From: an uncultured virus (IMG/VR IMGVR_UViG_3300047355_000120)
Taxonomy: Duplodnaviria; Heunggongvirae; Uroviricota; Caudoviricetes
Strand: one strand, 5' to 3'
Virus record (IMG/VR): IMGVR_UViG_3300047355_000120
Length of the DNA: 20,000 nt
Shown: in pieces, positions 1 to 18,056 of the stretch
Numbering within the stretch: the first letter of the stretch is position 1
Layout of the letters: each line of letters begins with the position of its first letter
Program-made: the position numbers and the translations under genes
Notes under the pieces: generated by a model
Database searches by the model: none
What the model saw: the letters and a program-made list of their open reading frames with translations, nothing else
What the model was told of the DNA's origin: nothing

Positions 1-34
1 CAAAGCTCAGATTTTTTACAATTGCATTTGACAT
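1..34 (-). CDS. 5' end of a gene running off the window (MSNAIVKNLSF...), possibly a phage GroEL/Cpn60-like chaperonin
   Basis: ATG at 34-32 after an A-rich pentamer leader. The 11 visible residues resemble the Cpn60 N-terminal K-x-L-x-F-G pattern, but this is too short to be sure. Confidence 0.3.
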   Translation of the reverse strand, partial: MSNAIVKNLSF

Positions 35-1411: not shown

Positions 1412-1894
1412 TTAACAGGTTGGATTAGTATATGTTATTCTTCCGCTTGCATCAACTACAAAATCATTAGCGCATGTTGTGTAATCATAATTGTATGTTC
1501 CTCTTTGATTACTCAATGGTGTAGGGTTATTTAAATTAGAAATACTTTCAAAACCTTGAGCACCAAGTGAATTAACCCATGTTTCACCATTTGTCCACTC
1601 TGCTGTTATAAAATAAACAGTTATAGGCACATTAGGAGGGGTTTGAGTCCCATCGTAGTATGTTGCTGTAATAGATGTAAAATCTGAACTAAAAGCTGGA
1701 CCATATGGAGGGTTTGAAGAGCAAGGAGAATTGTTCCAAGCTGGATAACTTACTCCTGAACCAGCCGCTTGGCCAGAATTCATTAAATCATACATATGTA
1801 TAGGACCGGTAATTGAACCACTAGAGCTATAATTATTATAATATAATTCTTTAGCTATTCCTAACATTGATATATTTGTATTTGGTACTGCCAT
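1412..1894 (-). CDS. Small fibre-associated (putative tip/adhesin) protein (160 aa)
   Basis: TAATG overlap with the S74 fibre stop; MAVPNTNISMLGIAKEL N-terminus; G/S/N/Y-rich. Confidence 0.7.
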   Translation of the reverse strand: MAVPNTNISMLGIAKELYYNNYSSSGSITGPIHMYDLMNSGQAAGSGVSYPAWNNSPCSSNPPYGPAFSSDFTSITATYYDGTQTPPNVPITVYFITAEWTNGETWVNSLGAQGFESISNLNNPTPLSNQRGTYNYDYTTCANDFVVDASGRITYTNPTC

Positions 1895-4800
1895 TATTTA
1901 ATTTTTTTCTTTAGTTCTTCTATTTCAGCTTTTAATTCTTTAATAGCTTCGACTAGTATTGGTGTTATACCTTGATGTCTCATTGATAGCATACCGTTGT
2001 CATTTTCTCTAACAAGTTCAGGTAAAACTTCTTGAACGTCTTGAGCTATAAATCCTATATCTTCTTTTATATCAAGTATACCTTCTGATTTTTCTTTCCA
2101 ATCAAACGTTACACCTTTTAGTTTCATTGTTTTTTCTAAAGCATTTTCTACAGGTTTTATATTTTTCTTTAATTTTTTATCTGATGGAGAACCGTATGCA
2201 ACAATATCACCAAGTATAGTCAAAGTACCACTTGAGTTTAATTTACCTGTTTGAGCCGGTGTTGATCCTGTTCTAAAACAAACTGCATAACCAGATATTG
2301 TAGGCCCTTCATTTGCTTGATCATAAAAAGTTGCTGTACTAGTTGTAGGATTTGAGTGATTAGCTCTAAACCTATATGAATCAGTAACAGCGTCTCCAGT
2401 TATTGTAAGATCTCCAGTATAAGAACCAGACATTGTAATATCGTTTGCATTAGCCGTTATACCGTTACTACCAATAACATTTAATGTAACACCACCACTT
2501 GTTCCACCACCAGTCATACCTGTACCAGCGGTCACGCTAGTTATATCACCTGTTGTTGGTGGAGCTGTCCATACCAAATTTATAGAACCTGAAGCTTTTG
2601 ATAGATAATAACCTGTTCCAGGTGCTGCGGTTGTTGGCATTCTCCAATACGTATTAGCTATAGTTGAAGTTGCAGCGGGACCAACTAACTCTAAATTTCC
2701 ATTACCATATAGCTTAACTAATGTGTCAGTTACCCTAGCATTTCCACTATTTGAATTTAAATATTCGTTTATAATTGCAAGATAACGAAGTTTATTATCA
2801 TCTGGTGTAACAATACCTGGATTAAAGAAAATTTCATTTTCTCTGCTTCCACCAGAATTATTATAAGCAAAAGCCATACCTTGATTGTTTATAGGTGCCG
2901 CGTTTGCTGCGTTACCAGCCACATACAAATAACCATCAGATCCAGAACCATTCATAATTATTCTTTGATTTGTGGTATCTCCTCTTTGTGTGACTGATTG
3001 TAAATCGTCAGCTTCTGAAGTTAAATACCCACTGTCATTAGTCCACATGGATATATTACCTGATTTGTTGGTTAAAGTACTTGTACTTACGTTAGAAACT
3101 AAAGTTGAACTTGAACCAGCTGGTAATAACATTGTGTTAGTTACACCAGCACTATGAGGCTGAGCAGATAATGTTTGACCATGACTATTATCATAACAAT
3201 TAAGCTTTATTTTTGCATCTACTGAAGATCCATCACCTTTTATTGTTAGTATAGCTCCAGAAGGTACTATTTCATCAATAACAGGAGAGGTTAATGTTTT
3301 ATTAGTTAATGTTTGAGTACCTGTTTTTGTAACTACGGTGCTGTCTATAGAAAATTCTTCATTTGATAAACTTAAACCTGTTCCAGCCGTATATTGTGTG
3401 TCATCATTAGGTGGTGTAGCCCAAGCGTTATCACCTCTTAAAAAAGTTGAACTACTAGCTGTTCCTGACGCGGATAAATCTAAAGTTGTTAGAGCCGAAG
3501 CAGCATCAGGTGTTGTTTTTATAAAAGTTCCAGCTGTTAACTGTATTGTTGATGCAGTACCTGTGTTTGGTGTTATAGTTACATTAGTGTTATTACTACC
3601 AGGAGCTGACAAACTAATAGTATAAGTTATAGGTGGTGTATCGCTATCAGCTCTCCAAGCTGGTACGCCACTTGCGTTTGTTTTCCAAACTAAATTAGCA
3701 TCTGTAGCTGCTGGAGCGGCAACATAACCAGCAACAGTTACTGCATTTGGAATCCATGGTGGTACACTAAAACTACCATCACCATTTAAATAATATGTTC
3801 CTCCTTGTGTTCCAGCAGCAGGCGCAGGCACAAGACCAGCTGTTCCCGCCACATTAGCTGTAGAAGAAACAAAATCATCATATGTTGTTCCAGTAGGCAC
3901 AACCCATGTTGCATCAGCTCTTAAAAATTTATCAGCATGAGGGTTTGGTAAAATAGGTACTAAACCAGCTGTACTTGTTGTAACAACACTATAAGTAGTA
4001 TTAGGTGATGTTAAAGTCATTAAATATGGATCTGTCGTAGTACCTGCTCCTGTTAAAGCAGTTCCTAAAGTTCCTGTTGCAGTTTCGAATTTTAAAAATT
4101 CATTATTAAGTAGTGTTTTATTTACAGGCGTACCTTGTGTATCTCTTACTTTCCATTGATAACTTCCAGCTGCACTGTTAATAGTAAAAGCAGTTGCTGA
4201 AGTTCTAGTTACTGTAGTCGCACCTGATCCGGTAATAGTTATATCATCAGGACCACCACTACCAGCTAATCTAAGTATAGGGTTACTATTTGATCCACTA
4301 TTTTGCTCTACAGATAAATCATATGTATTTTGAGTATTTGTATCAGGAGAGGTAAGCGTCATTATATAAGGATCGCTTGTACTACCAGAACCTGTAAGCG
4401 CTGTACCTAATGATCCTGTAGCTGTAACAAATTTTAAATATTTTTCGTTATCAACTGTTTTATCTAAATCTGCAAAATCTCTAACATACCATTCAGTATT
4501 TTCTTGAGTATCAGTCCAAGGTACATTAGCAAACATTTTTTCCGAATTCAACTGTATTGCATAATTTCTATTTGCAGCGTCTGTAGTATATCCTATTTGT
4601 ACTCCACCTCTAGTACCATCTGCGGCAAGTGGAAGAGTGTATGTTCCTGGTGGAACATCCCAAGTATTATCTCCTCTTAAAAATGTAGTTCCATCTTTGG
4701 TTCCAGTTGCTGATAAATCTATTGTACCAACAGTTACAGCACCAGTTGCGGCTGAATTTTCTATTCCAGCAGATATAAATGTACCATTAGCATTTGTAAA

Positions 4801-6453
4801 TGTAGTTACACCTGCACCTGTATAACTAGGGACATCCCATGTGTTATCTTTACTTAAAAACCTTGTGCTAGTATCAGAAGTGCCGTCTTGTGCACTTAAA
4901 TCAGCTGTAACAGTCACAGCACCTGTTGTTGCGGTGTTAGGTGTTAAATCTACATAAGTTCCATCAGTTGTAGTAACGGTAGTTACACCTGAATTTGTAG
5001 CAGGTACTCTAGTCCAAGCAGTTCCATTATAAATACACCAATCACCTAAATTCCAAGAATTTGGAGCCACACCTGATCCGTTTGGTGCAGCGGAACCAGC
5101 CACATCAACTATGTATAACCAACCATCAGCTGGTGATAAAGCTGTTAAGTCTGGATTACCACCGCCTGTGCCTGCAGCACTCCAAGTATCTTTAAACTGT
5201 AAGCCCGTTGGTATTGCACCCCAAGATCCATCACCTTTTAAATAAGTTGTTCCAGTTCCACCTTCAGGTACGTAACCCACATTAGCACCACCAATATATT
5301 TAGCCGATGTTAAAGTTAATTCTCTATTTGCTATACTTTCAACTAAAGGTGCACCCGCTGAATCTGCTGTAGCTAAAGTAACGCCAGTTATACCAGTGTC
5401 TGTATTTGTACCTGTTAAAGTTATTGTGTTACCTGTTTGTGATGCCGCAACACTACCTGCACCTAATATTAAAACCGTTCCACCACTGTTGCTTAATAAT
5501 ATGCCAGAATTAGTATTATTTGATCCAGTACCTGTTATAGTTTGAAAGGGATTTTGCGTATCGGTCCAAGGTACATTAACAAGCATTTGTTCAGTATCTA
5601 AAGTTACCGCATAATTTCTTGCTGTGGCATCTGTAGTATAACCTATTTTAACACCACCTAAATCTGCAGCTGTAGCAACTGGTAAAACATAAGTTGTATC
5701 TGTCCAAGGAACATTTACAAACATTTTTTCACTACTTAATTGAACTGGATAATTTTTAAGATTTTGACCATAACCTATTTGAACACCACCTCTTGTACCA
5801 TTTGCAGCTAAAGGTAAAGTATATACTGTGTCAGTCCAAGGCACATTAACAAAAGCTTTTTCTGCAGCTAATTCTAATGGATAATTTTTAAGATTTTGAC
5901 CATAACCTATCTGAATTCCACCTCTAGTTCCATCAGCTGCTAAAGGTAATACATAAGTACCTGGTATTGTAGATATTAATTGTAAACTACCTCCACCATC
6001 AATAAACTGAGTATTATTACCAGCTCCAGTAACAGTTAAAACTCCGGCTGTTGTTATAGGTGAATTAGTTACTGTAAATGCGGTAGGCATAGTAAGACCA
6101 ACGCTTGTAACCCCTAAACTTGTATTATTTATCCATTGTGTACCTACGTTTGTTGATGATAATATTTGACCAGCTACTCCTGGTTGATTAGAAGAGTCAT
6201 AATATTTTCCAGAAACAAGTAAATCATTACTTATAGTGATAGAATTAGTAGTTGTAGATCCAAGATTTGTAACTTGTTGTAATGTTTGAGCTCCTCCTCC
6301 AGTTCCTATTAAATCTAATATACTTTGTACAGTAAAACTAACTGTAGGATTATTTTTAGGAGAATTATCATCATTTTCATCATGCGTTATTGTTCCAATT
6401 AATAAGTCTGCCGCTTTTGGCGTATTTAAAGGATACGAATATATTATTGCCAT
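1894..6453 (-). CDS. Long tail fibre (1519 aa) with internal repeats and C-terminal peptidase S74 intramolecular chaperone
   Basis: G/T/A/S-rich; four (V/A)NVPWTDT repeats; six FLRGDxxW-type motifs. C-terminus SDKKLKKNI...GFIAQDVQEVLPELV...LVEAIKEL coiled coil (~1894-2184). Confidence 0.9.
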   Translation of the reverse strand: MAIIYSYPLNTPKAADLLIGTITHDENDDNSPKNNPTVSFTVQSILDLIGTGGGAQTLQQVTNLGSTTTNSITISNDLLVSGKYYDSSNQPGVAGQILSSTNVGTQWINNTSLGVTSVGLTMPTAFTVTNSPITTAGVLTVTGAGNNTQFIDGGGSLQLISTIPGTYVLPLAADGTRGGIQIGYGQNLKNYPLELAAEKAFVNVPWTDTVYTLPLAANGTRGGVQIGYGQNLKNYPVQLSSEKMFVNVPWTDTTYVLPVATAADLGGVKIGYTTDATARNYAVTLDTEQMLVNVPWTDTQNPFQTITGTGSNNTNSGILLSNSGGTVLILGAGSVAASQTGNTITLTGTNTDTGITGVTLATADSAGAPLVESIANRELTLTSAKYIGGANVGYVPEGGTGTTYLKGDGSWGAIPTGLQFKDTWSAAGTGGGNPDLTALSPADGWLYIVDVAGSAAPNGSGVAPNSWNLGDWCIYNGTAWTRVPATNSGVTTVTTTDGTYVDLTPNTATTGAVTVTADLSAQDGTSDTSTRFLSKDNTWDVPSYTGAGVTTFTNANGTFISAGIENSAATGAVTVGTIDLSATGTKDGTTFLRGDNTWDVPPGTYTLPLAADGTRGGVQIGYTTDAANRNYAIQLNSEKMFANVPWTDTQENTEWYVRDFADLDKTVDNEKYLKFVTATGSLGTALTGSGSTSDPYIMTLTSPDTNTQNTYDLSVEQNSGSNSNPILRLAGSGGPDDITITGSGATTVTRTSATAFTINSAAGSYQWKVRDTQGTPVNKTLLNNEFLKFETATGTLGTALTGAGTTTDPYLMTLTSPNTTYSVVTTSTAGLVPILPNPHADKFLRADATWVVPTGTTYDDFVSSTANVAGTAGLVPAPAAGTQGGTYYLNGDGSFSVPPWIPNAVTVAGYVAAPAATDANLVWKTNASGVPAWRADSDTPPITYTISLSAPGSNNTNVTITPNTGTASTIQLTAGTFIKTTPDAASALTTLDLSASGTASSSTFLRGDNAWATPPNDDTQYTAGTGLSLSNEEFSIDSTVVTKTGTQTLTNKTLTSPVIDEIVPSGAILTIKGDGSSVDAKIKLNCYDNSHGQTLSAQPHSAGVTNTMLLPAGSSSTLVSNVSTSTLTNKSGNISMWTNDSGYLTSEADDLQSVTQRGDTTNQRIIMNGSGSDGYLYVAGNAANAAPINNQGMAFAYNNSGGSRENEIFFNPGIVTPDDNKLRYLAIINEYLNSNSGNARVTDTLVKLYGNGNLELVGPAATSTIANTYWRMPTTAAPGTGYYLSKASGSINLVWTAPPTTGDITSVTAGTGMTGGGTSGGVTLNVIGSNGITANANDITMSGSYTGDLTITGDAVTDSYRFRANHSNPTTSTATFYDQANEGPTISGYAVCFRTGSTPAQTGKLNSSGTLTILGDIVAYGSPSDKKLKKNIKPVENALEKTMKLKGVTFDWKEKSEGILDIKEDIGFIAQDVQEVLPELVRENDNGMLSMRHQGITPILVEAIKELKAEIEELKKKIK
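4507..5958 (-). repeat. Four 44-46 aa coding repeats in the 1519-aa fibre (5827-5958, 5695-5826, 5557-5694, 4507-4644)
   Basis: YxLPxAxxxxxGGxxIGY...NY...(V/A)NVPWTDT. Units 1 and 2 share GGATAATTTTTAAGATTTTGACCATAACCTAT on the plus strand. Confidence 0.9.
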
Positions 6454-6456
6454 TTA

Positions 6457-9204
6457 TTATTTGTTTTCTAATTCTTTTACTCTAATTTCTAATTCTTGTA
6501 TTGCTTTAACTAATATTGGAACAAGTACTGAATATTTTAATGATTTTATTCTATCACCTTGTGGATTTAAATCGTCTTCTACTAATCCAGGAAAAACCTT
6601 TTCAGTTTCTTGTGCTATTAATCCTATTTGTTTTAAATCATCTCCTATAAAATTAAAGTTTTTTACTTTTAATTTTTTAACATCTTCTAGCTTAGGCGTT
6701 GCATCAGTAATATTTTCTTTTATAGTTTCATCTGAATACTGACCGTAAGAATTGTTTCTGTTTCTTAGGTTACCATTTAAATTACACAGAAGCATGTTTG
6801 TATCTGATCCAGATGTTGGAGCAGCTTGAAATACTAAATGATAACCACCAGCATTCATTGAAGCAGATGTGTATGATAATAAACCTGTTGGGTTACTTAC
6901 ACCATTAAGATTGTTTTTAATACCAATACCATTAGCACTGTTTATTTGTATATTTAATTTACCTCCTATATTACCTGAATTAAAACCTATACCTACATCT
7001 TGAAGAAAATAACCATTTTGCCCAGATAATGTTCCAACAAGTGTTAAAGCGTTTATGTTACTTGTACTGGCAAAATCTCCATAATATGTAGTATTTGTAT
7101 CATAAAAAATTGGGGCAGTCATGGATGTTCCTGATGCTAAAGCTCCAGATTTAGTCTGAGAACTTCCCCCACCGTCTAAAACTAACCTAGCTGTAGATTG
7201 AGACCCGTTAGTTGTTCTACTAACCCAAAAATTGTCAGAGTGAAAAGCGTGGGTTAATTGAAAAGAATAATTATTACCACTCGTCCAGAGATCTCCTGCA
7301 GATTGAATATAGTTTACCCAATCTGTAGTTGGAGGGTTATTTGCAATATTACTTCCAAAGTAAAAACCAGATGGTTCACTGGTTCCTGCAAAAGAATACA
7401 CTCGTGTGCTTTTTCTTCCAGAGCCACCTGAAACTATCATGCTTGGTGTTAAACCTCCTACATTAGTAGCATTAGTAGCATTAGTAGAATTAGTAGCGTT
7501 AGTAGCATTTGCTACAGTCTGAGTGCTAATATTACCACTATGAATAATCTGTTTAGTTGTATTCCAACTACCACCTTTACCCGCTCTTAAATACCAATTT
7601 TCATAAACAGTTGTAGTAGAAGGTCCAATAATTTGCCAACTAGCATAACCATCACTCCAACCTTTCATTTGTATATATGATTGCCAATTTCCATTGCCAG
7701 GAACTTGATTTGTAAAACCTAAGTTCATAGCATGATCGGTTTCAGCGTTTGGAGGTATATCACCAGCTCTTGTATCTTTTATAAAGTACCCTGTAGTACC
7801 ATTCCATCTTCCTGTATAAGTACCTGTTAAAGATACAGTTCCTGTTGTTGTAATTGTTCCACCTGTAATTCCATTGCTTGTAGCCACTGAAGTTACTCCA
7901 CTTGACTGAACAGGGTTAGGTAAGTTAACAGAATCCCAAACTGTTCTCCAACTTTGCCATGTTCCACTATTTTTACCTCTTACGGCTATTTCACCTGTTC
8001 TAAAATTACTAAATATCTGAGAAACCCAAGATGAACTATATGCGGCAACAAAAAGACCTCCATCGGCATAACCAGCAGCTGAAGATGCATTACAATAACC
8101 AGACATGTTAGATGTAGCAGAATCTACAGCAATACCACCAGTACTATTTCTAGACGTAAAAGTAGTTCCAACAAAATTAGTTGTAGCTGTTACGGTTACA
8201 GCTGGACCTGAAGCATTAGTTAAACTTATACCTGTACCTGCAACTAAAGAAGTTAATGTACCCGTATTACTAGTGTGTGAATTCCATGTGTTTGAATTAC
8301 CTCCACTAGCATATATCACGCCTCCAGCTGTAAAACTTCCAGCTACAGTATTGTTTCCTGACATATCTAATGTCCATCTGTCAGCCGATGCAGACCATCC
8401 ACCTATTCTAAGTACATTATCACTGTCTAGCCCAAAATTAACAGCATATGCACCAGGTCTATGGAAATGCATAATAGCTCCAGCGCTACTACTACCATAA
8501 ACGCCTAGTCCAACAGCAGATGACCCGGCTGTTGATCCAATACCATATACATCTAATGGATAAGTTCCTGCTGTAAAATCTGTTGATCCAGTTACGGTTC
8601 CACCAGCTAGTGGTAAAAAAGGACCTGCACCTGGGGTAACACTATCAACATAAGCTTTGTTAGCAGCATCAGTGCTATCGGTAACTGTATCAACGCCTTG
8701 TATTCTACCTGTGCCTCCTAAAGTTATATCACCTCCTGAAACAGTAAAATCTCCAGCTATAGTAACATTTCCAGAACCATCAAAAGATTGTTGTACAACA
8801 TTATTGTGTTTAAATTCTATGTAATCAGGGGTTGCTTCTCTGTAAAATATACCATAAGTTGTTGCGTTAGCAAGTATAACCATAGGTACAGTAGCACCGG
8901 CAACATAATTAATTCCAAAACCAGTTGCGCTTGTTGTAAAACCTGAAAAAGTTGCACTAGTTCCTGTTAAAGCACCCCCAACAGTAAATGATATACCAGA
9001 AGCTGTAGCCGTAGCACCTGTAAGTGTACCACCAGATAAAGGTAAATAAGGTCCACCAATAACAGTTGAAGCTGCTACCCAAGTTGGTGCTGCATTACCA
9101 TTTGATTTTAATATCTGTCCAGCCGTACCGTGGTTACCGTTAAATTGTACAGCACCTGTAGAGTGAACGTCAAATATCCCATTTATATTAGATAATGATG
9201 CCAT
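6457..9204 (-). CDS. Tail fibre / receptor-binding protein (915 aa) with knob-like domains and C-terminal peptidase S74 chaperone
   Basis: YLPLSGGTLTG, FLPLAGGTVTG and DAANKAYVD shaft motifs; three knob-like segments. C-terminal SDETIKENI...IGLIAQE...LVKAIQEL (~6457-6735). Confidence 0.9.
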   Translation of the reverse strand: MASLSNINGIFDVHSTGAVQFNGNHGTAGQILKSNGNAAPTWVAASTVIGGPYLPLSGGTLTGATATASGISFTVGGALTGTSATFSGFTTSATGFGINYVAGATVPMVILANATTYGIFYREATPDYIEFKHNNVVQQSFDGSGNVTIAGDFTVSGGDITLGGTGRIQGVDTVTDSTDAANKAYVDSVTPGAGPFLPLAGGTVTGSTDFTAGTYPLDVYGIGSTAGSSAVGLGVYGSSSAGAIMHFHRPGAYAVNFGLDSDNVLRIGGWSASADRWTLDMSGNNTVAGSFTAGGVIYASGGNSNTWNSHTSNTGTLTSLVAGTGISLTNASGPAVTVTATTNFVGTTFTSRNSTGGIAVDSATSNMSGYCNASSAAGYADGGLFVAAYSSSWVSQIFSNFRTGEIAVRGKNSGTWQSWRTVWDSVNLPNPVQSSGVTSVATSNGITGGTITTTGTVSLTGTYTGRWNGTTGYFIKDTRAGDIPPNAETDHAMNLGFTNQVPGNGNWQSYIQMKGWSDGYASWQIIGPSTTTVYENWYLRAGKGGSWNTTKQIIHSGNISTQTVANATNATNSTNATNATNVGGLTPSMIVSGGSGRKSTRVYSFAGTSEPSGFYFGSNIANNPPTTDWVNYIQSAGDLWTSGNNYSFQLTHAFHSDNFWVSRTTNGSQSTARLVLDGGGSSQTKSGALASGTSMTAPIFYDTNTTYYGDFASTSNINALTLVGTLSGQNGYFLQDVGIGFNSGNIGGKLNIQINSANGIGIKNNLNGVSNPTGLLSYTSASMNAGGYHLVFQAAPTSGSDTNMLLCNLNGNLRNRNNSYGQYSDETIKENITDATPKLEDVKKLKVKNFNFIGDDLKQIGLIAQETEKVFPGLVEDDLNPQGDRIKSLKYSVLVPILVKAIQELEIRVKELENK
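7462..7509 (-). repeat. 9-bp tandem repeat x5 encoding NAT/NST heptad-free linker
   Basis: Plus strand ATTAGTAGC ATTAGTAGC ATTAGTAGA ATTAGTAGC GTTAGTAGC; protein NATNATNSTNATNATN. Confidence 0.9.
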
Positions 9205-9206
9205 AA

Positions 9207-11033
9207 CTATATATTAGCAGATGTAAATAATTTATATACAAGTTTTAATTTTAAATTAGTAAATCCACTTGGTAGAGTACCACCACTTACTCTATGTAAA
9301 GTTGTTCCAGCACCAGGCAAATAAGGTCTTACAACAGCATTACCTGTAACCGCGGGCCTATAAAGCATACCGTTTCCACTGTTATTATTGGTCATATAAT
9401 TCCATTGAGTTGAATTAACTCGTGTTACAGTTTGAACACCTGGTATTTGGTTAGATTGCCTCGCTTCTAGTTGAAGACCACTATTACTAGTGACTGTTCC
9501 TGTTGTCATCCAATAACTTTCTTGTATTACTACATATGTTGCGCCAGGTCCTGTTGTTCCACCTCCAGGAGCTGCTATTAAAGTATATCCACTACCTCCA
9601 AAACCAGCATTAAGTTGAGCTGCAGTAAAAGTCCATGTTTGTTCTAAAACAGCAGGTGTTAATCCACCACCTGCAACTTGCCAACTTGGAGAAGCATTCC
9701 CATTTGATGTTAATACTTCCCCTGCAGCTCCGTAAGCTGTAGCGGATGTTCCTAAAGCTATAGCGCCTGTGCTTGTTATAGTCATACGAGTGCTACTATT
9801 AGTTTCACTTCTAAATATATGGTTTGACGCACTATAATAATTATTGTTATCAACATAAGGAAACCAGTTATCAGCCGTTCCATTAGAAAGAACATTTCCT
9901 CCACTCGCGCCAGCATTAACTTCAATACCACTAGCGTTAGAATTTACATTTGCACCCACAACTAACTTAGCACCCGGGTTGGTATTATCGATCCCAACGT
10001 TGCCAGTATCTTTAATAAACATTAAACTTGAACCATTTCCATCTTTAAATTGAAAGCTTCTACTTGATTGGTTATTGTCTGAATCTATGGTTATAGCTCC
10101 TGATTCTCTAAAATTAATTTCAGCAAAACCTCCTATTAAAAAATTTATTGCAGATCCATATAATCCAATGTTACCATTATTTTCTACATGAGCTTTTTCA
10201 TTACCTGCCTCGTTATAAACAACAAAATTTTTAGCGGTTGTTGCACCTAAATATCCTTCAATTGTATTAGCTATTTTTAGTTCAATTAATGCTGAGCCAG
10301 GAGCATTTCTATTAAGACTTAATATAGTTCCAGATCCTGAAAAAATTGCTGTTGTTCCTGTAACACTTCCTGCAAAAGTTGCGTTTTGTGTACCGCCAAT
10401 AGTTAATGCTAATGTTGGTGTGCTTCCTGTTTTTATTCTAAAATCTCCTGCTGTACTAATTTCTGCGCCAGTTACATTGTTTTCTGGTGTCATAAATGAA
10501 TTAGCAGAATATTGTAATTTTTTTCCAGCGGCTAAATTTATATCTCCTGCAAAAGTTGCGTTTTGTGATGAGTCTAAAGTTAAAGCTGCTAATCCACTAG
10601 CGCCTGTTGCAATAACCAAAGCATTGCTTTCTGTACCATATATAATCCCTAAGTCTCCTTGATTTACATTTGACCAAGTAATAGCGGGTCTAGATGCTCC
10701 AGAACCTTTAACTACTAACCCTGTATAATTAGAAACACCATCAATAAGTACAGTTCCTGCAAAAGTTGCATTTCCTGAAGTGTCTATAACTAATCTACCA
10801 GAAGCAGCATCTACATCATAAAAATTTAATGAACCATTTACAGCTGAATATATAGAAAATGTTTTACCTTGTGCAGCTGAGTTATCTAAAGTTATAGAAG
10901 CACAGTTTCCATTTGTTATAGATATTCCACTTTCAGTACCTGATATATTATTTATAGGGGCTAAACTACCTATTTTAAGAAAATCTCCATCCGTGAATAG
11001 GAATTTATTATTTATATTTGATAAGTTTGCCAT
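9207..11033 (-). CDS. Tail fibre / receptor-binding protein (608 aa), modular, without S74
   Basis: MANLSNINNKF start; three NATFAG repeats; GNVGID; GEVLTSNGNASPSW hinge; beta-rich C-terminal domain. Confidence 0.85.
   Translation of the reverse strand: MANLSNINNKFLFTDGDFLKIGSLAPINNISGTESGISITNGNCASITLDNSAAQGKTFSIYSAVNGSLNFYDVDAASGRLVIDTSGNATFAGTVLIDGVSNYTGLVVKGSGASRPAITWSNVNQGDLGIIYGTESNALVIATGASGLAALTLDSSQNATFAGDINLAAGKKLQYSANSFMTPENNVTGAEISTAGDFRIKTGSTPTLALTIGGTQNATFAGSVTGTTAIFSGSGTILSLNRNAPGSALIELKIANTIEGYLGATTAKNFVVYNEAGNEKAHVENNGNIGLYGSAINFLIGGFAEINFRESGAITIDSDNNQSSRSFQFKDGNGSSLMFIKDTGNVGIDNTNPGAKLVVGANVNSNASGIEVNAGASGGNVLSNGTADNWFPYVDNNNYYSASNHIFRSETNSSTRMTITSTGAIALGTSATAYGAAGEVLTSNGNASPSWQVAGGGLTPAVLEQTWTFTAAQLNAGFGGSGYTLIAAPGGGTTGPGATYVVIQESYWMTTGTVTSNSGLQLEARQSNQIPGVQTVTRVNSTQWNYMTNNNSGNGMLYRPAVTGNAVVRPYLPGAGTTLHRVSGGTLPSGFTNLKLKLVYKLFTSANI
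10368..10770. repeat. Three dispersed NATFAG-encoding DNA boxes (10368-10390, 10545-10567, 10755-10770)
   Basis: TCCTGCAAAAGTTGCGTTTTGTG is identical (23 nt) in the first two; the third shares TCCTGCAAAAGTTGC. A partial copy is at 13441-13453. Confidence 0.85.
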
Positions 11034-11043
11034 TATTTGTTTT

Positions 11044-12987
11044 CTAAGCTTGATATGAAATTATTTTACAGTTCCATCCGTGTGCATTACTATGCCACCC
11101 TGTAAATGTAATCGTTATGTTATTTGTTCCACCATTTGTTGATACAGATATTGCTCCACTACCAACAACAGCTGTTTGAACAAACCCAACAATACCATTT
11201 CCTATGTTAGTGTTACTTCCATTATCCCTCCAGTATATAAACCCATTGTTAACTTTACTTTGCCAACCTGTAACTTGTATTTCACATTGACCACCTTGAG
11301 GATTGTTTCCAAAAAGTGTAACAGGATTAAAAGTATAAGTTCCATTAGCTCCTTGATAACCAATATTTAAAACTCTAGGTGTGTTTAAAATAGTTTGTAA
11401 AGTGTTATCTCTTTGAAATTGTTTATCACAAATAGAATATCCGTTAACATCTAAAGGTTGTGTAGGCGCTCCAGTTGCAATACCTACTTTAATATCACCC
11501 GCGCCTGTATTTTGAAAATTAACTTCTCTACTAGCTCCACTAGACCACCCAATATTTCCTGTAGTTCCGTCTGAAGATATATCAAACACGCTAGAACCAT
11601 AAACATACATTTGTAGTCTAGGTGTTCCACCAGCAACTGTTTCTATTAACACTTGTCCATTTGTAGGGTTAAGTACTGCAGAGTCTGTTCCAAAATGAAC
11701 ACCTCCATTAACGTGTAAAGTTGCGTTAGGCAAATTCGTCCCGATTCCGACGTTGCCACTATTACTCATATACATTACATTAGTGTTGAGACCACCTGCA
11801 TTATTACCTGTATCAAACTGAAGACCACCGTTATCTAATCCTTGTATTCTTGCTAAAGTTCCACCAGGATTTGTAAAACTTATTAATGAATCTAATCCAT
11901 CTGTTGAATTATGCAGCTTTATCATATCTTCAGCCGTATTCTGAATTACTAGTTTATAACCTGTAGGCGAATCCGTTCCGATCCCGACGTTACCTACCTT
12001 ATCTATACGCATTTGCTCAGTTGAAGCAGAACCACCTGTTTGTGTCCAAAAAGTTAATGCAGAACCACCATTACCATTAGATTCTTGATGTACAGAGTTA
12101 ATTCTTGTTTCAACTAATTGACTTGCTGAACCACTCCAGTACCTACCACTCATTCTAATTGAGTTTTGTATTTCATTACTGTCTACTAAACTTGCGTCAT
12201 AATTTCTCATTATAAGCGTGGTTTCACCAGATTGTCTTCCAGATCCTACATTTAATATACCATCAATATTTACATTTGCTCTGTTGTTATTAGCATTAAG
12301 CCCGTTGGTATTCATAAAATGAAAAGTAGTGTCTACATTACCACCACCAGGTGTTGTTAGTGGCATAAACGTTACCGTAGGTGCTCCACTATTATAACCA
12401 CCGTAAGTCATTCTCACTTGATCATAAGCAGAACTATCACCAGCATTACTTAATCTAAAACCTAAAGTTGTGCCACCAGCCACTTCAAGCTTACCATCAG
12501 GCGAATTCGTTCCGATTCCTACGTTGCCTGAGGTGTCGATTAAAAATGGAGTAATTGTAGTTGCGCCCACTCTATTTATACGAAATGTACCATTTGTTCG
12601 AGAATACATACCCCATCCTTTATCATCATTACCATCACCTTGAACTAAAAATAAGCCGGTGTCAGCATAATTCCCTTGCTTTATTGTCAATATAGCACTA
12701 CCTAACACACTCTCTATACCTATCATTACGTTTCCAACAGTATCTATACGCATTTTTTCTGTGGGAGTTTGATTACCGGTTTTAAAATGCAAGGGATAAT
12801 TAACAACATCTAGACTTGTAGTATTAGGACTAATAGTCATTTTTCTTCCAGATGAACCTATAAAATCTGAATCTCCAGTTACTTGAAGTAAAGCAGAACC
12901 TGTTACACTCGTCGCTGTTGCCCCAATTAATACATTGCCTCCAGTTGTTACTAGGAATTTATTATTTATATTAGATAAATTAGCCAT
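11044..12987 (-). CDS. Tail fibre / receptor-binding protein (647 aa) built of GNVGIGT-delimited modules
   Basis: MANLSNINNKF start; GNVLIG, GNVMIG and three GNVGIGT motifs; beta-rich C-terminal domain. Confidence 0.85.
   Translation of the reverse strand: MANLSNINNKFLVTTGGNVLIGATATSVTGSALLQVTGDSDFIGSSGRKMTISPNTTSLDVVNYPLHFKTGNQTPTEKMRIDTVGNVMIGIESVLGSAILTIKQGNYADTGLFLVQGDGNDDKGWGMYSRTNGTFRINRVGATTITPFLIDTSGNVGIGTNSPDGKLEVAGGTTLGFRLSNAGDSSAYDQVRMTYGGYNSGAPTVTFMPLTTPGGGNVDTTFHFMNTNGLNANNNRANVNIDGILNVGSGRQSGETTLIMRNYDASLVDSNEIQNSIRMSGRYWSGSASQLVETRINSVHQESNGNGGSALTFWTQTGGSASTEQMRIDKVGNVGIGTDSPTGYKLVIQNTAEDMIKLHNSTDGLDSLISFTNPGGTLARIQGLDNGGLQFDTGNNAGGLNTNVMYMSNSGNVGIGTNLPNATLHVNGGVHFGTDSAVLNPTNGQVLIETVAGGTPRLQMYVYGSSVFDISSDGTTGNIGWSSGASREVNFQNTGAGDIKVGIATGAPTQPLDVNGYSICDKQFQRDNTLQTILNTPRVLNIGYQGANGTYTFNPVTLFGNNPQGGQCEIQVTGWQSKVNNGFIYWRDNGSNTNIGNGIVGFVQTAVVGSGAISVSTNGGTNNITITFTGWHSNAHGWNCKIISYQA
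11728..12528 (-). repeat. Three 30-bp CpG-rich GNVGIGT boxes (11728-11757, 11965-11994, 12499-12528)
   Basis: Consensus GGY AAC GTM GGR ATC GGR ACG RAT TYG CCT, pairwise 25-27/30 identical. A 16-nt partial copy is at 9989-10004. Confidence 0.85.
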
Positions 12988-12995
12988 ATATTATT

Positions 12996-15900
12996 TTAAT
13001 TCATTACAACAGTTGCATCGTTTTGTCCAAATCCTAAATCAAGTGTAATACCTATTTTTTGAGTGTTAGTATAAACTGGAGTTATTGTACATTTTATAGA
13101 AAGATCAGTTGTATCTTGAGCAAAAACAACATTAAAATCACTTGTATCAAAATCTGGACCAGTATCTAATATTTTATTGTATAAAGGACTTGCACCATAA
13201 GATTTAACTACTGTATACTTTTTTGCAACAGCACAAGCTGTAGACGTGTCACTAGTTAGCATTACATCAAAAATCATAACACCTGTTGTTGCTCTACTTA
13301 TTGTAAAAGCAACTCCTGCTACACCAGCATTTCCAGTTGTATATAGTTTAGTAAAAGTACCACCTTTACCTGTTCCACCCCCACCACCACCGTGGATTAT
13401 ATGACCATCAACAGTTAAGTTACCGTCAACAGTTAAATTACCTGCAAAAGTTGAAGATGATGCTCCAACTGTTAATTGGGCAACTCCACCTGCAGGTTGC
13501 ACTACAAAATTATTTCCTACTGCTCCTATTTCAACATTTCCACTATTATCAGCTAACTGTATAACACCTGTTCCATCTGTGCTAGTAAAACTTGCAACAA
13601 CATTAGTAGTTCCTGAATTAAAAACACCTGCAGTTCCTGAGTTAGTTGCAGTAACAGATCCTGTTACACTAATACCTGTACTTGTAGTGACAAATTTAAC
13701 ACCAGGAGTTGTTGTTCCTCTGTAAGATATTGATACGCCTTGACCACCGTGACTAAGCATAGAGCCACCGCTACCACTTTTTGATAAAGTTAATATATCA
13801 GAAGTTATTTTTAAATTACCAGATGTTGGACCTTCTATAAAACTATCTCCCGAACCTGTTGAATATATTTGAAGACTAGTTCCAGAAAGTTTTATTTTAC
13901 TAGAATCTGTAAGTGTTATATCATCGTTTGCACTTACAGCAATATCAGTACCACCAGTTACATTGTTAACAGCTAAAACTTCTGCTAAGTTTTGATCAAG
14001 AACACCACTTACTTGGCTTACGTTTATCTGCTTAATAGTATTGTCATCAGCATCACTAACCCATAGTTTATCTGTAGCAGCTACTGTTATACCAGTACCA
14101 TCATCCGCAGCTTCAATAGCATTATTATTTCCTACATAATTTATAGCTGTAGTTATAGTACCTGACGCTTCTGTGTTTATTATACCTGTACCACTTGCAA
14201 ATGTAGCCGTACCTGTTGTAGTTATATTAGTTGTATTTGTTCCATCAGATAAAGTCCAGTATTGATAATTATCTAAAGTTGGGAAAGTAATTAAATTACC
14301 TAAACCATTTACATACTTAGTAGCACCACTAGCTCCACCAGCCCATGTTAAAGCTATAGCTGGAGTGGTTGTAGGGTTTGTAACCGTAACATCAAGTGCA
14401 TCACCAGTTGTAGTTGCTGAAACACTTGTAACTGTACCAACTTCAAGAGCTGTCCATGTATTTGCATTACCTGAAGCTCCACCAGAAGTTAAAGCGTATC
14501 CAGCTGTACCGTATTCTGTACCATCTGTTGCTGTACCTAAAGCTAAACCTGTTTTTAATCTAGCTGTTTGTTCAAAAGTACCTGGACCTTTAAAAGTTGT
14601 TGTGTCTGTATTAGCATCACCAAGTGTTGTATTACCTTCAACTATTAAGTTTGCAGAATTACCTATTGTAACTGTTTTTGTTGCAGCAGTATCTTGACTT
14701 ATAACACCTGTGCCTATAGTATTAGTTCCACTCCACATTGTGTATTGGTTAGGAGAACCAGATCCTAACACTTCGTTTGATTGATCTAGCTTTTGCCAAG
14801 CATCGGTGCCAGCACCATTACTTACATATATTGCCCAGTCACCAACTAACCAATCTGTAATACCATCTAAATCTTGACTACCAGCAGGATCAACAATCCA
14901 AAATTGACCGTTTACAGGAGTAGCTGATGGAGGAGTTCCTGCTCCACCTTCACCTACTGTTCTAGCATCCCATGTTCCTTCAAAAGCAAGACTACCAGCT
15001 ATACCTGTAATCTGACCTTGTAGTTTTGCCATTGCAGCAAGTATCGTATCAGATGCAGCGATTGCAGCAGACGTTGGAGTTGGTAAGTTTGTAAGAACTT
15101 TACCAGTTACTGTAGTATCAGCTATTGTTGTAGCTAATGGCATATCACCACCTTGTGTGTAGTTATAAGGACCACCTGTTAAACTAACATCTCCACTCAT
15201 AGTTATAGTTCCAGCACTTGCCAATTGAGCAGCTGTACTTGCGTTACCAATAAAACCTATTGGAGTATTTGTTGCGGTAAAAGTACTAGATGTTATGCTA
15301 ACACCTCCTGTGTAGGTACCAGCTGTACCAGAAAAAGTACCATCTGAAAGAGTTGCAGCTTCTAATTCACCGCCTATAGCTACTTTACCAGTTGCGCCGC
15401 CAGCAAATGTAAATCCTGTAGCACCAGTTATAGTTTGAGCACCATCCCAATATGTAACCTGATTAGCTGCACCACCACCTGAAACAGATGTACCTGCTAT
15501 ACTTATTTTTATTTTTTTGTTTGTATTGTCCCACTCTGTAGCTATATTGCCAACGCCTTCAAAATCTATAGTATTTCCACTAGCAACAGTATAAGGACTA
15601 CCTGTTCCACTGTCAGCTTCTATTAACCATGAATAAGGTGTAGGGTTAGGATCTGTTATCCAATTAGTACCTGTTGCTGTAGAAGATAATATTTGACCTG
15701 CAGTACCTACATCACCGCTTGAATCAGAGTAATAACCTGTATTTAAAATATTAACAAATGTACCTGATCCAGTAGATTCTAAATTACCAGTTACCTTAGC
15801 ACCAGCTGTTAATGTTTCAAATCTTTTAGTTCCATTAAAATAAAGATCAACACCAGCATTTTCAGTAGCTAATATCATTGTTTCAGTAGGTGTAATTTGA

Positions 15901-16637
15901 GCATTTACTCTAAACTGATCTCCTTTAAATACAAAACCACCTGAATTAACTTCACTTATAAAACTTAAATCACCATTTTGTGATTTAGATATTGTTGTTC
16001 CTAAAAAGTTATTATGTTTAAATAATATTTTAGATGTTTCGTCAAGCATAACAATGTCATCATTAGCACTAACATCTATATCTGTTCCACCTGTATCGTT
16101 ACCTGCTACTAAAGTTTCAGCTAAAGTTTCTTTACTAGGTTTTGTTGCTATGTAATCTACAATAGCTTTTGTAGTAGCTAATTTAAGATCATCGCCGGGT
16201 GCTACTATAGACGTTACTATTGAAGTTATAGTTGGAGTTGCATTACCTACTTTTAAATTTAATAAAGTACCTAAGCTAGTTATATTAGTTTGAGCAGCTG
16301 TTTGAAGCGTACCTGTTATTCTTGTCGATGTTAAGTCTGTAAATCCTGTACCGACTTGACCTTCTATACTTACAAGAACATTTGCTGGGTTTTGATTATC
16401 TTGTGTTTTAAACCCTGCTCCTTTAAATACGTTATTAGTTAAATCAATATCTCTACCTACAGCTTTAAAACCTAAATCTAATACTGTTTGTAAATCACCT
16501 GTCGCTACAGTAACAAGATCAATAATACTTTGTACTGTAAAGTTTTTTGTAGGCTTACCCTTAACACTTACATCAGTACCTAATATAAGGTCTGTTTTTG
16601 TAGGCTCTACCGTAGGATATGAATATATTATTGCCAT
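12996..16637 (-). CDS. Large tail fibre / fibre scaffold protein (1213 aa)
   Basis: MAIIYSYP start shared with the 1519-aa fibre; G/T/A/S-rich; duplicated LAExLxxxNxTGGTDIxVSANDDI module; no S74. Confidence 0.85.
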   Translation of the reverse strand: MAIIYSYPTVEPTKTDLILGTDVSVKGKPTKNFTVQSIIDLVTVATGDLQTVLDLGFKAVGRDIDLTNNVFKGAGFKTQDNQNPANVLVSIEGQVGTGFTDLTSTRITGTLQTAAQTNITSLGTLLNLKVGNATPTITSIVTSIVAPGDDLKLATTKAIVDYIATKPSKETLAETLVAGNDTGGTDIDVSANDDIVMLDETSKILFKHNNFLGTTISKSQNGDLSFISEVNSGGFVFKGDQFRVNAQITPTETMILATENAGVDLYFNGTKRFETLTAGAKVTGNLESTGSGTFVNILNTGYYSDSSGDVGTAGQILSSTATGTNWITDPNPTPYSWLIEADSGTGSPYTVASGNTIDFEGVGNIATEWDNTNKKIKISIAGTSVSGGGAANQVTYWDGAQTITGATGFTFAGGATGKVAIGGELEAATLSDGTFSGTAGTYTGGVSITSSTFTATNTPIGFIGNASTAAQLASAGTITMSGDVSLTGGPYNYTQGGDMPLATTIADTTVTGKVLTNLPTPTSAAIAASDTILAAMAKLQGQITGIAGSLAFEGTWDARTVGEGGAGTPPSATPVNGQFWIVDPAGSQDLDGITDWLVGDWAIYVSNGAGTDAWQKLDQSNEVLGSGSPNQYTMWSGTNTIGTGVISQDTAATKTVTIGNSANLIVEGNTTLGDANTDTTTFKGPGTFEQTARLKTGLALGTATDGTEYGTAGYALTSGGASGNANTWTALEVGTVTSVSATTTGDALDVTVTNPTTTPAIALTWAGGASGATKYVNGLGNLITFPTLDNYQYWTLSDGTNTTNITTTGTATFASGTGIINTEASGTITTAINYVGNNNAIEAADDGTGITVAATDKLWVSDADDNTIKQINVSQVSGVLDQNLAEVLAVNNVTGGTDIAVSANDDITLTDSSKIKLSGTSLQIYSTGSGDSFIEGPTSGNLKITSDILTLSKSGSGGSMLSHGGQGVSISYRGTTTPGVKFVTTSTGISVTGSVTATNSGTAGVFNSGTTNVVASFTSTDGTGVIQLADNSGNVEIGAVGNNFVVQPAGGVAQLTVGASSSTFAGNLTVDGNLTVDGHIIHGGGGGGTGKGGTFTKLYTTGNAGVAGVAFTISRATTGVMIFDVMLTSDTSTACAVAKKYTVVKSYGASPLYNKILDTGPDFDTSDFNVVFAQDTTDLSIKCTITPVYTNTQKIGITLDLGFGQNDATVVMN

Positions 16638-16638
16638 G

Positions 16639-17262
16639 TTATTGTAATTTTGTTATGATTAATTGTGCAGGTGGTATGTCTATTCCCCAAGCAGCATCAG
16701 TAACTTGACCTGCTAGTGTACCAGCACCACCTGATGTTGGGTTTTGCATCCATAAGTAGTATTCTTCTATAGTGGATACTTGTATATATGTATTTATTTC
16801 TATACGATGTCTCTCCAAGGTGTTCTGCGATCTAAATCTTTCAGTTGATGTTGGTCCAACTTGAGCACCATTTACATCTACCATCTTAAAATTCAATATA
16901 GCAACAGTACCAACAGTTGCTTGGCCGTAATAAATTTGCTGTATGCTGTATGCACCTTTGATATTAAATGTTATTTTACCATCAGCACCTAACATGACTG
17001 CATCACCAGTAGAACCTTGTGCTGCGCCAAAAGTAATTATAGCTCCAGTGTTGTTATATCCTGGGTCAAACGTTGTTGTTGGGTAAAACGCTGATAATTT
17101 TTGTAAATACTGCTGATCTACTAGCGATTTTATCGATGTGAGTGTATATTGTACTGTAGGGTTGCCCTGTACTGGGTCTCCAGCTGAGTCTACAGTGTTT
17201 GATCCTATAATTTGATCTTGTAATTGTGGACTAGCTATAGGATATGAGGAGATTATTGCCAT
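16639..17262 (-). CDS. Virion structural protein (207 aa), MAIISSYP N-terminus with a possible C1q/BclA-like jelly-roll C-terminus
   Basis: N-terminus paralogous to the two large fibres; DGKITFNIKGAYSI resembles the C1q-like G-x-x-T-x-x-x-x-G-x-Y motif. First gene of the minus-strand operon. Confidence 0.7.
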   Translation of the reverse strand: MAIISSYPIASPQLQDQIIGSNTVDSAGDPVQGNPTVQYTLTSIKSLVDQQYLQKLSAFYPTTTFDPGYNNTGAIITFGAAQGSTGDAVMLGADGKITFNIKGAYSIQQIYYGQATVGTVAILNFKMVDVNGAQVGPTSTERFRSQNTLERHRIEINTYIQVSTIEEYYLWMQNPTSGGAGTLAGQVTDAAWGIDIPPAQLIITKLQ

Positions 17263-17828: not shown

Positions 17829-18056
17829 ATGACTAAATTAACTTCAAAAAGATTTGTAATCAGAAAATCACTAATCGGAAAAAATGTAACTATCGAATTC
17901 ACTAACAAAAAAGGTGTTAAACACACTTACAATCATGATAAAGCGTACAATATCATGAAAGCAAACTTAGAAAAAATGGCCTGCTTCATAAAGTACAAAT
18001 CATACACTGCTACTAATAATATTCCAGTAGTACTAAGAAATGTAGAATTAGTATAA
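17829..18056 (+). CDS. Basic hypothetical protein (75 aa), first gene of the plus-strand arm
   Basis: Lys-rich ORF with A-rich leader downstream of two motif copies. Confidence 0.85.
   Translation: MTKLTSKRFVIRKSLIGKNVTIEFTNKKGVKHTYNHDKAYNIMKANLEKMACFIKYKSYTATNNIPVVLRNVELV

Follow-up and report, generated by a model that had tools for sequence, protein, structure and literature searches.

Shufflons and the Gin/Cin invertible tail-fibre segments rely on a dedicated recombinase and on inverted repeats, and act within one genome. In T-even phages, the glycine-rich motifs of the gp38 adhesin and conserved motifs of gp37 are proposed recombination hotspots (Tetart, Desplats and Krisch 1998, cited in the available portion of PMC12032242), and the accessible parts of two further accounts describe short conserved 'recombination hotspots' in the tailspikes and receptor-binding proteins of Klebsiella and E. 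coli phages (bioRxiv 10.64898/2026.05.12.724579; PMC10408124). The MAT fibres of Bdellovibrio bacteriovorus (Bd2133, Bd1334 and Bd3182) are described, in the available sections of PMC10769870, as trimers of intertwined beta-helix subdomains with 'capping loops' at their edges; these loops follow the consensus V-G-G/N-pi-X-X-P-X-X-X-L, the tips are chimeric and diverse, and the family includes a non-S74 subgroup. Here, a stretch of 20,000 nt from an uncultured virus of the Caudoviricetes (IMG/VR record IMGVR_UViG_3300047355_000120; hereafter the window) was analysed, with the focus on a tail-fibre gene in which three 30-bp boxes encoding the motif GNVGIGTxxP lie between fibre modules. An earlier interpretation based on the nucleotide sequence (the sequence-only reading) had proposed that such boxes are in-frame recombination sites for adding, deleting or swapping receptor-binding modules. 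The comparisons reported below largely support the view that related marine phages have swapped fibre modules at these boxes.

The window corresponds to positions 16200-36199 of a phage contig of 42,651 nt (G000) with a GC content of 33.6% and a CpG observed/expected ratio of 0.57. The box coordinates, the spellings and the distances of 534 and 237 nt between box starts were found as the sequence-only reading had described them, with the genes read on the minus strand (Table 1). Its description of the boxes as CpG-rich agrees with the counts of 4, 5 and 4 CpGs, set against the genome-wide ratio. The three full boxes are identical to one another at 25-27 of 30 nt, a repeat search of the sequence recovered them independently (families D2 and D4), and the boxes all lie in direct orientation on the minus strand. 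Box 1 joins the N-terminal part of the protein to module A, box 2 joins modules A and B, and box 3 joins modules B and C. The partial copy reported for the neighbouring gene was recovered, encoding GNVGID, and so was the 15-nt identity, which encodes (K/Q)MRID with a rare CGT codon.

Table 1. Boxes, modules and genes of the fibre region, in window coordinates (L144, L145 and L146 are related loci introduced in the text)
Feature	Position	Strand	Remarks
Tail-fibre gene, 647 aa, three full boxes	11044..12987	-	phrog_9942 E 2.6e-16, phrog_18345 E 4.1e-14; PDB 8OND Bd2133 E 2.1e-6
Box 1, GNVGIGTNSP, GGC AAC GTA GGA ATC GGA ACG AAT TCG CCT	12499..12528	-	4/7 motif codons G/C-ending, 4 CpG
Box 2, GNVGIGTDSP, GGT AAC GTC GGG ATC GGA ACG GAT TCG CCT	11965..11994	-	5/7 motif codons G/C-ending, 5 CpG
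Box 3, GNVGIGTNLP, GGC AAC GTC GGA ATC GGG ACG AAT TTG CCT	11728..11757	-	6/7 motif codons G/C-ending, 4 CpG
Module A, aa 164-331 of the 647-aa fibre protein	11995..12498	-	97.3% (blastn) to 98.2% (megablast) identity with L145
Module B, aa 342-410	11758..11964	-	99.6% (blastn, 267 nt) or 100% (megablast, 264 nt) identity with L146
Module C, aa 421-647, C-terminal tip	11044..11727	-	96.3% identity with L144
Degenerate motif copy GNVMIG, mostly ordinary codons	12706..12735	-	preceded by the MRID 15-mer at 12741-12755
15-nt identity with 12741-12755, (K/Q)MRID, ATG CGT ATA GAT	12000..12014	-	just upstream of box 2; part of ERMRIDSSGNVGIGTTSPxxKLxV
Neighbouring fibre gene, 608 aa, partial box	9207..11033	-	N-terminus MANLSNINNKFL common to both genes
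Partial box, GNVGIDNTNP, GGC AAC GTT GGG ATC GAT...	9975..10004	-	rare-codon spelling; in fibre gene 9207-11033

Among phages in GenBank the window has no close relative: the 6 records that tblastn returned for the 647-aa protein, from Pelagibacter and Synechococcus phages, have less than 60% identity, and blastn of window positions 9000-13000 gave no match. A related-locus search on viral contigs yielded one relative only. Four relatives (L001, L144, L145 and L146), found by module peptides and not by box sequence, were compared to the window by blastn. Within the fibre gene, L146 shares only positions 11994..11728 (99.6%), that is, box 2 through box 3, with identity starting at codon 2 of box 2 and stopping at the last base of box 3. 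L145 shares 12529..11965 (97.3%), box 1 through box 2, and here identity starts in the 3' part of box 1 and stops after ...ATCGG of box 2. The tract shared with L144 (11757..11033, 96.3%) starts inside box 3 and runs to just beyond the stop codon, and that shared with L001 (12394..11978, 86%) has the contig end at its left and a right end inside box 2. Six of the seven internal ends of high-scoring segment pairs (HSPs) in the gene region 11044-12987 are in a box or at most 1 nt away, the seventh being at the 3' end of the gene; as the boxes make up about 5% of the gene, simple arithmetic puts the chance of such a placement at ~1e-7. Module-sized tracts of identity bounded by boxes are a direct observation, and in base-level alignments the identity switches on and off inside the boxes, with unrelated sequence beyond, no indels or scars, and frame and motif exact on both sides. 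No relative with a breakpoint at the partial box (9975-10004) was found.

The modules carried between the boxes are younger than the surrounding genome. The backbone of the same contigs is 80-88% identical to the window and the exchanged modules are 96-100% identical. In L145, module A is part of a fibre gene with an N-terminus similar to that of window gene 9207-11033, module C occurs in L144 in a gene with a different N-terminus, and module B is flanked in L146 by other modules. Because of this gap in identity and these different gene contexts, the modules are recent transfers and not vertical remnants. The segments between boxes had been described as unrelated, with recent tandem duplication named as the finding that would speak against exchange. 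No DNA similarity was found among the modules (best blastn E 0.016), which rules out recent tandem duplication, and at the protein level they have their first 10-32 residues and one weak off-register match in common, and beyond this at most a remote relation.

The comparison was extended to a pool of 71 AT-rich loci, selected because they carry a box, with HSPs of at least 90% identity and at least 100 nt. Nineteen of the 49 internal HSP ends are in a box or at most 5 nt away, whereas 200 randomisations gave 1.8 on average and never more than 6, and 16 distinct ends in boxes remain when overlapping loci are removed. Relative to the box, shared identity starts at offsets 0-7 or 26-27 and stops at offsets 17-30, and these limits are set by the match between the boxes of the two partners. 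The clustering of homology breakpoints in boxes, which the sequence-only reading had named as supporting evidence, is found both in this gene and in the pool.

The spelling of the boxes is anomalous for this phage, which is likewise observed directly. In the fibre genes, ATC accounts for 4% of isoleucine codons, ACG for 5% of threonine, GTC for 3% of valine and TCG for 3% of serine codons, GGC and GGG for 6 and 4% of glycine codons, and AAC for 29% of asparagine codons. The probabilities of at least 4, 5 and 6 G/C-ending codons among the seven motif codons are 3.9e-3, 2.5e-4 and 8.4e-6, and the boxes have 4, 5 and 6. In an atypicality scan of 11,899 ten-codon windows from 38 genes, the four boxes, the partial copy included, rank 3rd, 5th, 7th and 13th of the non-overlapping outliers; the partial box is the third most atypical window of the genome, and within the fibre genes the top four outliers are the four boxes. 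The G/C content at third codon positions (GC3) is 0.19 in fibre gene 11044-12987 and 0.13 in fibre gene 9207-11033, and G/C-ending patches are limited to about 15-20 codons around each box. The degenerate motif copies GNVEIGA, GNVTIAG and GNATFAG have ordinary codons. By codon rarity, atypicality rank and the probabilities above alike, the box codons depart from the genome bias, as the sequence-only reading had suspected, and the box spelling in the fibre genes is beyond chance.

The same spelling can be followed in other phages. A motif scan of viral contigs, using a pattern with all synonymous sites free, gave at least 140 stretches and 141 loci. Among the matches listed, to which the counts of instances, clusters and boxes that follow also refer, 223 in-frame instances give the extended consensus E-R-M-R-I-D-S-S-GNVGIGT-T-S-P-x-x-K-L-x-V. 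In these, GC3 is above an amino-acid-matched background from the same open reading frame (ORF) only at codons -4 to +8, and the excess peaks at +0.23, +0.24 and +0.20 at codons 0, 2 and 6 (codon 0 being the first glycine of GNVGIGT). Other conserved motif residues (R-5, P9, L13 and V15) have no excess, and codons 7 and 9 have a slight deficit. Particular third bases are favoured, with GGC over GGG at codon 0 (0.49 versus 0.05), ACG over ACC (0.41 versus 0.06) and GTC over GTG (0.33 versus 0.15); the preferred codons are GGC, AAC, GTC, GGG at codon 5, and ACG, and not simply any that end in G or C. The instances are not independent, and single-linkage clustering on masked flanks grouped them into 84 clusters, the largest with 112 members; averaged over clusters, the excess is 0.76 of 7 codons, with 52 of 84 clusters positive (Wilcoxon p 2.6e-4).

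In AT-rich ORFs, 11 of 74 boxes have at least four G/C-ending codons, compared with 1.2 expected. The spelling is over-dispersed, and AT-rich phages therefore hold either ordinary or 'locked' boxes; the phage of the window carries the locked kind. The locked word AAYGTCGGRATCGGRACG was found in at least 131 stretches of the viral contig scan, in loci of 32-75% GC, and among the matches listed 39 such loci are below 38% GC, several of them syntenic with the window phage. For 71 locked boxes in AT-rich ORFs, GC3 excess outside the searched positions is seen only at codons -1, 0 and 8, the flanks being at background. The G/C island is 27-30 nt long and comes without a GC-rich module. An origin of the island in modules imported from GC-rich phages was ruled out, since the island stops short of the modules and no HSP above 75 nt links AT-rich and GC-rich sequences. 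G/C-ending spelling is found in 11 of 12 canonical boxes of the window, L144, L145 and L146, or in 11 of 13 when L001 is counted. In L001, the closest viral relative, the box orthologous to box 2 (L001:401-430) reads GGT AAT GTA GGA ATT, with ordinary AT codons and the motif kept, and is followed by a different module and an S74 chaperone-like C-terminus. The claim that the DNA is constrained besides the protein holds for a specific rare-codon word with flanks at background, but not as a universal property, the L001 box having ordinary codons.

At the protein level, the 647-aa fibre protein aligns to the crystal-structure chain 8OND (Bdellovibrio Bd2133; E 2.1e-6) across three motif repeats, and to 8OML with an E value of 1.4e-3; the alignments run through ERMRID..GN(L/V)G(L/I)G..P..L.V. 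Because the motif aligns to Bd2133, and the published motif forms capping loops on beta-helix edges, the box is predicted to encode a structural loop bounding fibre modules. Searches of Rfam with window positions 9000-13500, on both strands, gave no match at E<=1.

The sequence-only reading had recommended a search of the full genome for a recombinase or a single-strand annealing protein. An annealing protein of the ERF superfamily is encoded outside the window, near the contig end (G000 42010-42516, L143:5811-6317; PF04404 E 2.6e-26, phrog_155 E 8.7e-32), and its presence is a matter of direct observation. Annealing proteins of the Erf type promote recombination between short homologous stretches. 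Searches of 29 ORFs against PHROGs, and of 13 of these also against Pfam, gave no tyrosine or serine recombinase, in a contig that may be incomplete. The idea of in-frame recombination sites stood in so far as breakpoints fall at boxes, the modules are not duplicates and an Erf protein is present; nothing pointed to a dedicated site-specific system.

These results suggest a model in which the boxes are in-frame microhomology seams for homologous recombination that swaps fibre modules, to which we assign a probability of roughly 0.78. Each box would encode the GNVGIGTxxP loop (within ERMRIDxxGNVGIGTxxPxxKLxV) with which a beta-helical module of the trimeric fibre opens. An invariant peptide with, in this phage pool, a nearly invariant DNA spelling (core AAY GTC GGR ATC GGR ACG) would give modules that are otherwise unrelated some 20-30 bp of in-frame microhomology. 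A crossover may then take place inside a box by general homologous recombination, in co-infected cells or with prophages, plausibly with the phage's own Erf-family annealing protein or host RecA as the enzyme, and crossovers at boxes would swap, add or delete whole modules with frame and fold intact. We infer the role of the box as homology in the crossover, and likewise the cause for which the rare spelling persists. The favoured cause is a frequency-dependent effect, whereby boxes that match the common word of the pool would keep recombining. Persistence of the spelling could reflect selection for compatibility, or concerted evolution of the shared seam.

Several points weigh against this model. 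Recombinants were not seen directly and exchange is read from sequence, and selection for viable chimeras alone would put surviving junctions at module borders. The crossover point within a box is not resolvable, because BLAST extends through any conserved box. In the pool, which was itself selected for box presence, 30 of the 49 ends are away from boxes, at gene borders, at another motif or inside modules. Among the matches listed, the cluster-level excess is modest, with only 7 of 14 and 13 of 27 clusters positive in the two AT-richest bins, and most boxes of AT-rich phages are at background usage, at least four G/C-ending codons being reached in the 11 of 74 only. Finally, the ordinary codons of the box 2 ortholog in L001 mean that the protein can do without the locked spelling and that the lineage has not fixed it.

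A different account of the spelling, with the same recombination seam as in the model and differing only in why the spelling persists, treats the locked word as a passive by-product of short-patch gene conversion, of GC-biased repair or of an ancestral box hitch-hiking with each crossover. The boxes do act as shared sequence across unrelated modules, the excess is directed towards G and C, and the over-dispersion in AT-rich phages, with most boxes at background and a subset G/C-coded, fits such a process. The preference for specific bases over any G or C, and the slight GC3 deficit at codons 7 and 9, speak against GC-biased repair, and recent import from a GC-rich donor is not seen, as no HSP above 75 nt joins AT-rich and GC-rich contigs. 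We regard a passive origin of the spelling as possible and, on this evidence, somewhat doubtful. A further suggestion, which we put forward tentatively, is that the box is a pool-wide standard adaptor, with a word close to GGC AAC GTC GGR ATC GGR ACG kept against mutation bias at 32%-75% GC, since agreement with the common word would be what allows a fibre module to be exchanged. If so, the boxes would be a case of second-order selection for evolvability and a natural in-frame assembly standard for host-recognition fibres, and AT-spelled boxes such as that in L001 would be seams dropped from the exchange network.

Survivor bias would dispense with the box DNA altogether: recombination would be illegitimate or occur anywhere, only chimeras joined at module borders would fold, and the spelling would play no part. 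The motif as a structural element bounding beta-helix segments is in keeping with this explanation, and so are L001, where the motif is kept with ordinary codons, and the majority of AT-rich phages, which are without the codon lock. It leaves unexplained, however, the 27-30 nt island of specific rare codons with background flanks and the recurrence of the same word in 11 of 12 boxes of the window and L144-L146, and the junctions are without indels or scars, with frame and motif exact on both sides. We consider it unlikely.

A cause in translation or mRNA is less probable still. At the start of a module, rare codons could make the ribosome pause and so aid co-translational folding, or could improve the accuracy of decoding at invariant residues, in either case independently of recombination. 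The boxes are indeed rare-codon clusters at domain starts, and ATC (0.20) and ACG (0.11) are somewhat more frequent in head genes than in other genes. However, GTC, GGG, GGC and TCG are not enriched in the head genes, the same word is favoured in GC-rich phages although it is not rare there, and in those phages isoleucine prefers ATT. The conserved residues R-5, P9, L13 and V15 are without excess, and the breakpoints would be unaccounted for. Translational optimality as such was rejected, only ATC and ACG being mildly favoured in the head genes.

A dedicated site-specific system, with a shufflon- or invertase-like recombinase or a nuclease recognising a GC-rich, partly dyad-symmetric box, would fit the conserved core word and the weak hairpin potential of three of the four boxes (z -2.2, -1.5 and -1.9) and is nevertheless very improbable, given direct instead of inverted repeats, the same word in contigs of 32-75% GC, one box that folds like its shuffles (z +0.1), a hairpin gain of 0.2-0.3 kcal/mol over position-wise synonymous shuffles that is confounded by GC heterogeneity, and the lack of a tyrosine or serine recombinase in the ORF searches above, with their limit of contig completeness. 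A hairpin or dyad reading of the box was also tried on its own and rejected: the DNA-fold z values are -2.2, +0.1, -1.5 and -1.9 for the four boxes, and the mean minimum free energies, 0.34 and 0.16 kcal/mol below synonymous shuffles (200 and 247 boxes), leave a gap that mixed GC contents can yield.

The box-bearing genes are part of a row of six tail-fibre genes on the minus strand (1894-17262), several of which match PHROG tail-fibre families. Two families can be told apart by N-terminus, MAIIYSYP (three genes) and MA(N/S)LSNIN (three genes), which points to two putative anchor families serving the six fibres. Positions 12939-12997, 10985-11043 and 9181-9205 are the 5' ends of fibre genes 11044-12987, 9207-11033 and 6457-9204, and have 80-84% DNA identity, the bases 5' of the start codon included. 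The S74 chaperone domain (PF13884) was found by Pfam at the end of fibre genes 6457-9204 and 1894-6453; Pfam gave no match in the box-bearing proteins 11044-12987 and 9207-11033, and thus no C-terminal S74 intramolecular chaperone. Fibre gene 1894-6453 (1519 aa) holds, at window positions 4500-5950, several internal copies of a segment of ~45 aa (..LPLAADGTRGG(I/V)QIGY..NVPWTDT..), which appear as multiple overlapping HSPs against L146 and L195.

Gene 9207-11033 has a second repeated box, of 43 nt, on the minus strand (10368-10410, 10545-10587 and 10755-10797). Its three copies, which are 70-81% identical, use ordinary codons for the peptide (Q/G)NATFAG. An HSP with L179/L180 (window 10577..10369, 83.7%) spans from one copy to the next, and the L145 homology at 10976..10746 stops 9 nt beyond the third copy; the 43-nt box may be a second type of seam.

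Other genes of the contig encode a portal protein, terminase, head proteins, GroEL, GroES, an endolysin, DNA ligase, a sigma factor and the Erf-like annealing protein. The GroEL-like chaperonin and two GroES-like proteins are encoded at G000 14686-16233, 14442-14702 and 9518-10123 (partly window 1-34), with matches to phrog_5725 (E 1.3e-128), phrog_3188 and phrog_13932, and GroEL and GroES are syntenic in L001. The window and the genome contig sequence differ at 7 positions (6486, 6493, 17981, 18000-18002 and 18005), none of them inside boxes.

Fibres largely determine which hosts a phage can infect, and a 30-bp seam would offer a concrete rule by which mosaic fibre genes in metagenomes can be interpreted. 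Such a seam is a testable case of synonymous sites held by recombination compatibility rather than by translation, and its boxes are candidate natural junction points for chimeric fibres in laboratory phage-host systems. The rare-codon island may be used as a signature to find seams of this kind in AT-rich viral contigs.

We regard the observation itself and the exchange of modules as solid, and both can be set beside the systems described so far. As in shufflons and the Gin/Cin segments, repeats within the coding sequence of an adhesin or fibre permit the in-frame exchange of C-terminal parts, but the window boxes are direct repeats, no such enzyme was found among the 29 ORFs, and exchange is between genomes. 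In the openly accessible literature searched, neither a rare-codon island marking a seam nor the string GNVGIGT was found. The 647-aa protein shares the capping-loop motif repeats of the Bdellovibrio MAT fibres, which are chimeric with diverse tips; MAT proteins are, however, bacterial surface fibres, and in the available sections of that work (PMC10769870) the motif is treated as protein structure, with neither a DNA-level seam nor a codon anomaly, and recombination is named solely in connection with cloning. For the Klebsiella and E. coli hotspots, as presented in the accessible text of those studies, short high-identity segments in otherwise different receptor-binding proteins are similarly read as preferred recombination substrates, although these are defined in amino acids, cluster where the anchor meets the tip, within the first 100 residues, and are not repeated along the shaft. 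The nearest published parallel is T-even gp38; the likeness, to the extent that the available source describes it, is that short conserved in-frame motifs part variable host-recognition segments and are proposed crossover points between related phages. In contrast to the monomeric gp38 with its hypervariable loops, the window fibre is predicted to be of the trimeric beta-helix type with the capping loop GNVGIGTxxP, the units that move are modules of 70-240 aa, and an island of rare G/C-ending codons sets the seam apart within an AT-rich genome. Motif-located recombination in fibre and adhesin genes is already known, and the window boxes are a sharper example of it, in which the rare-codon island is the new element.

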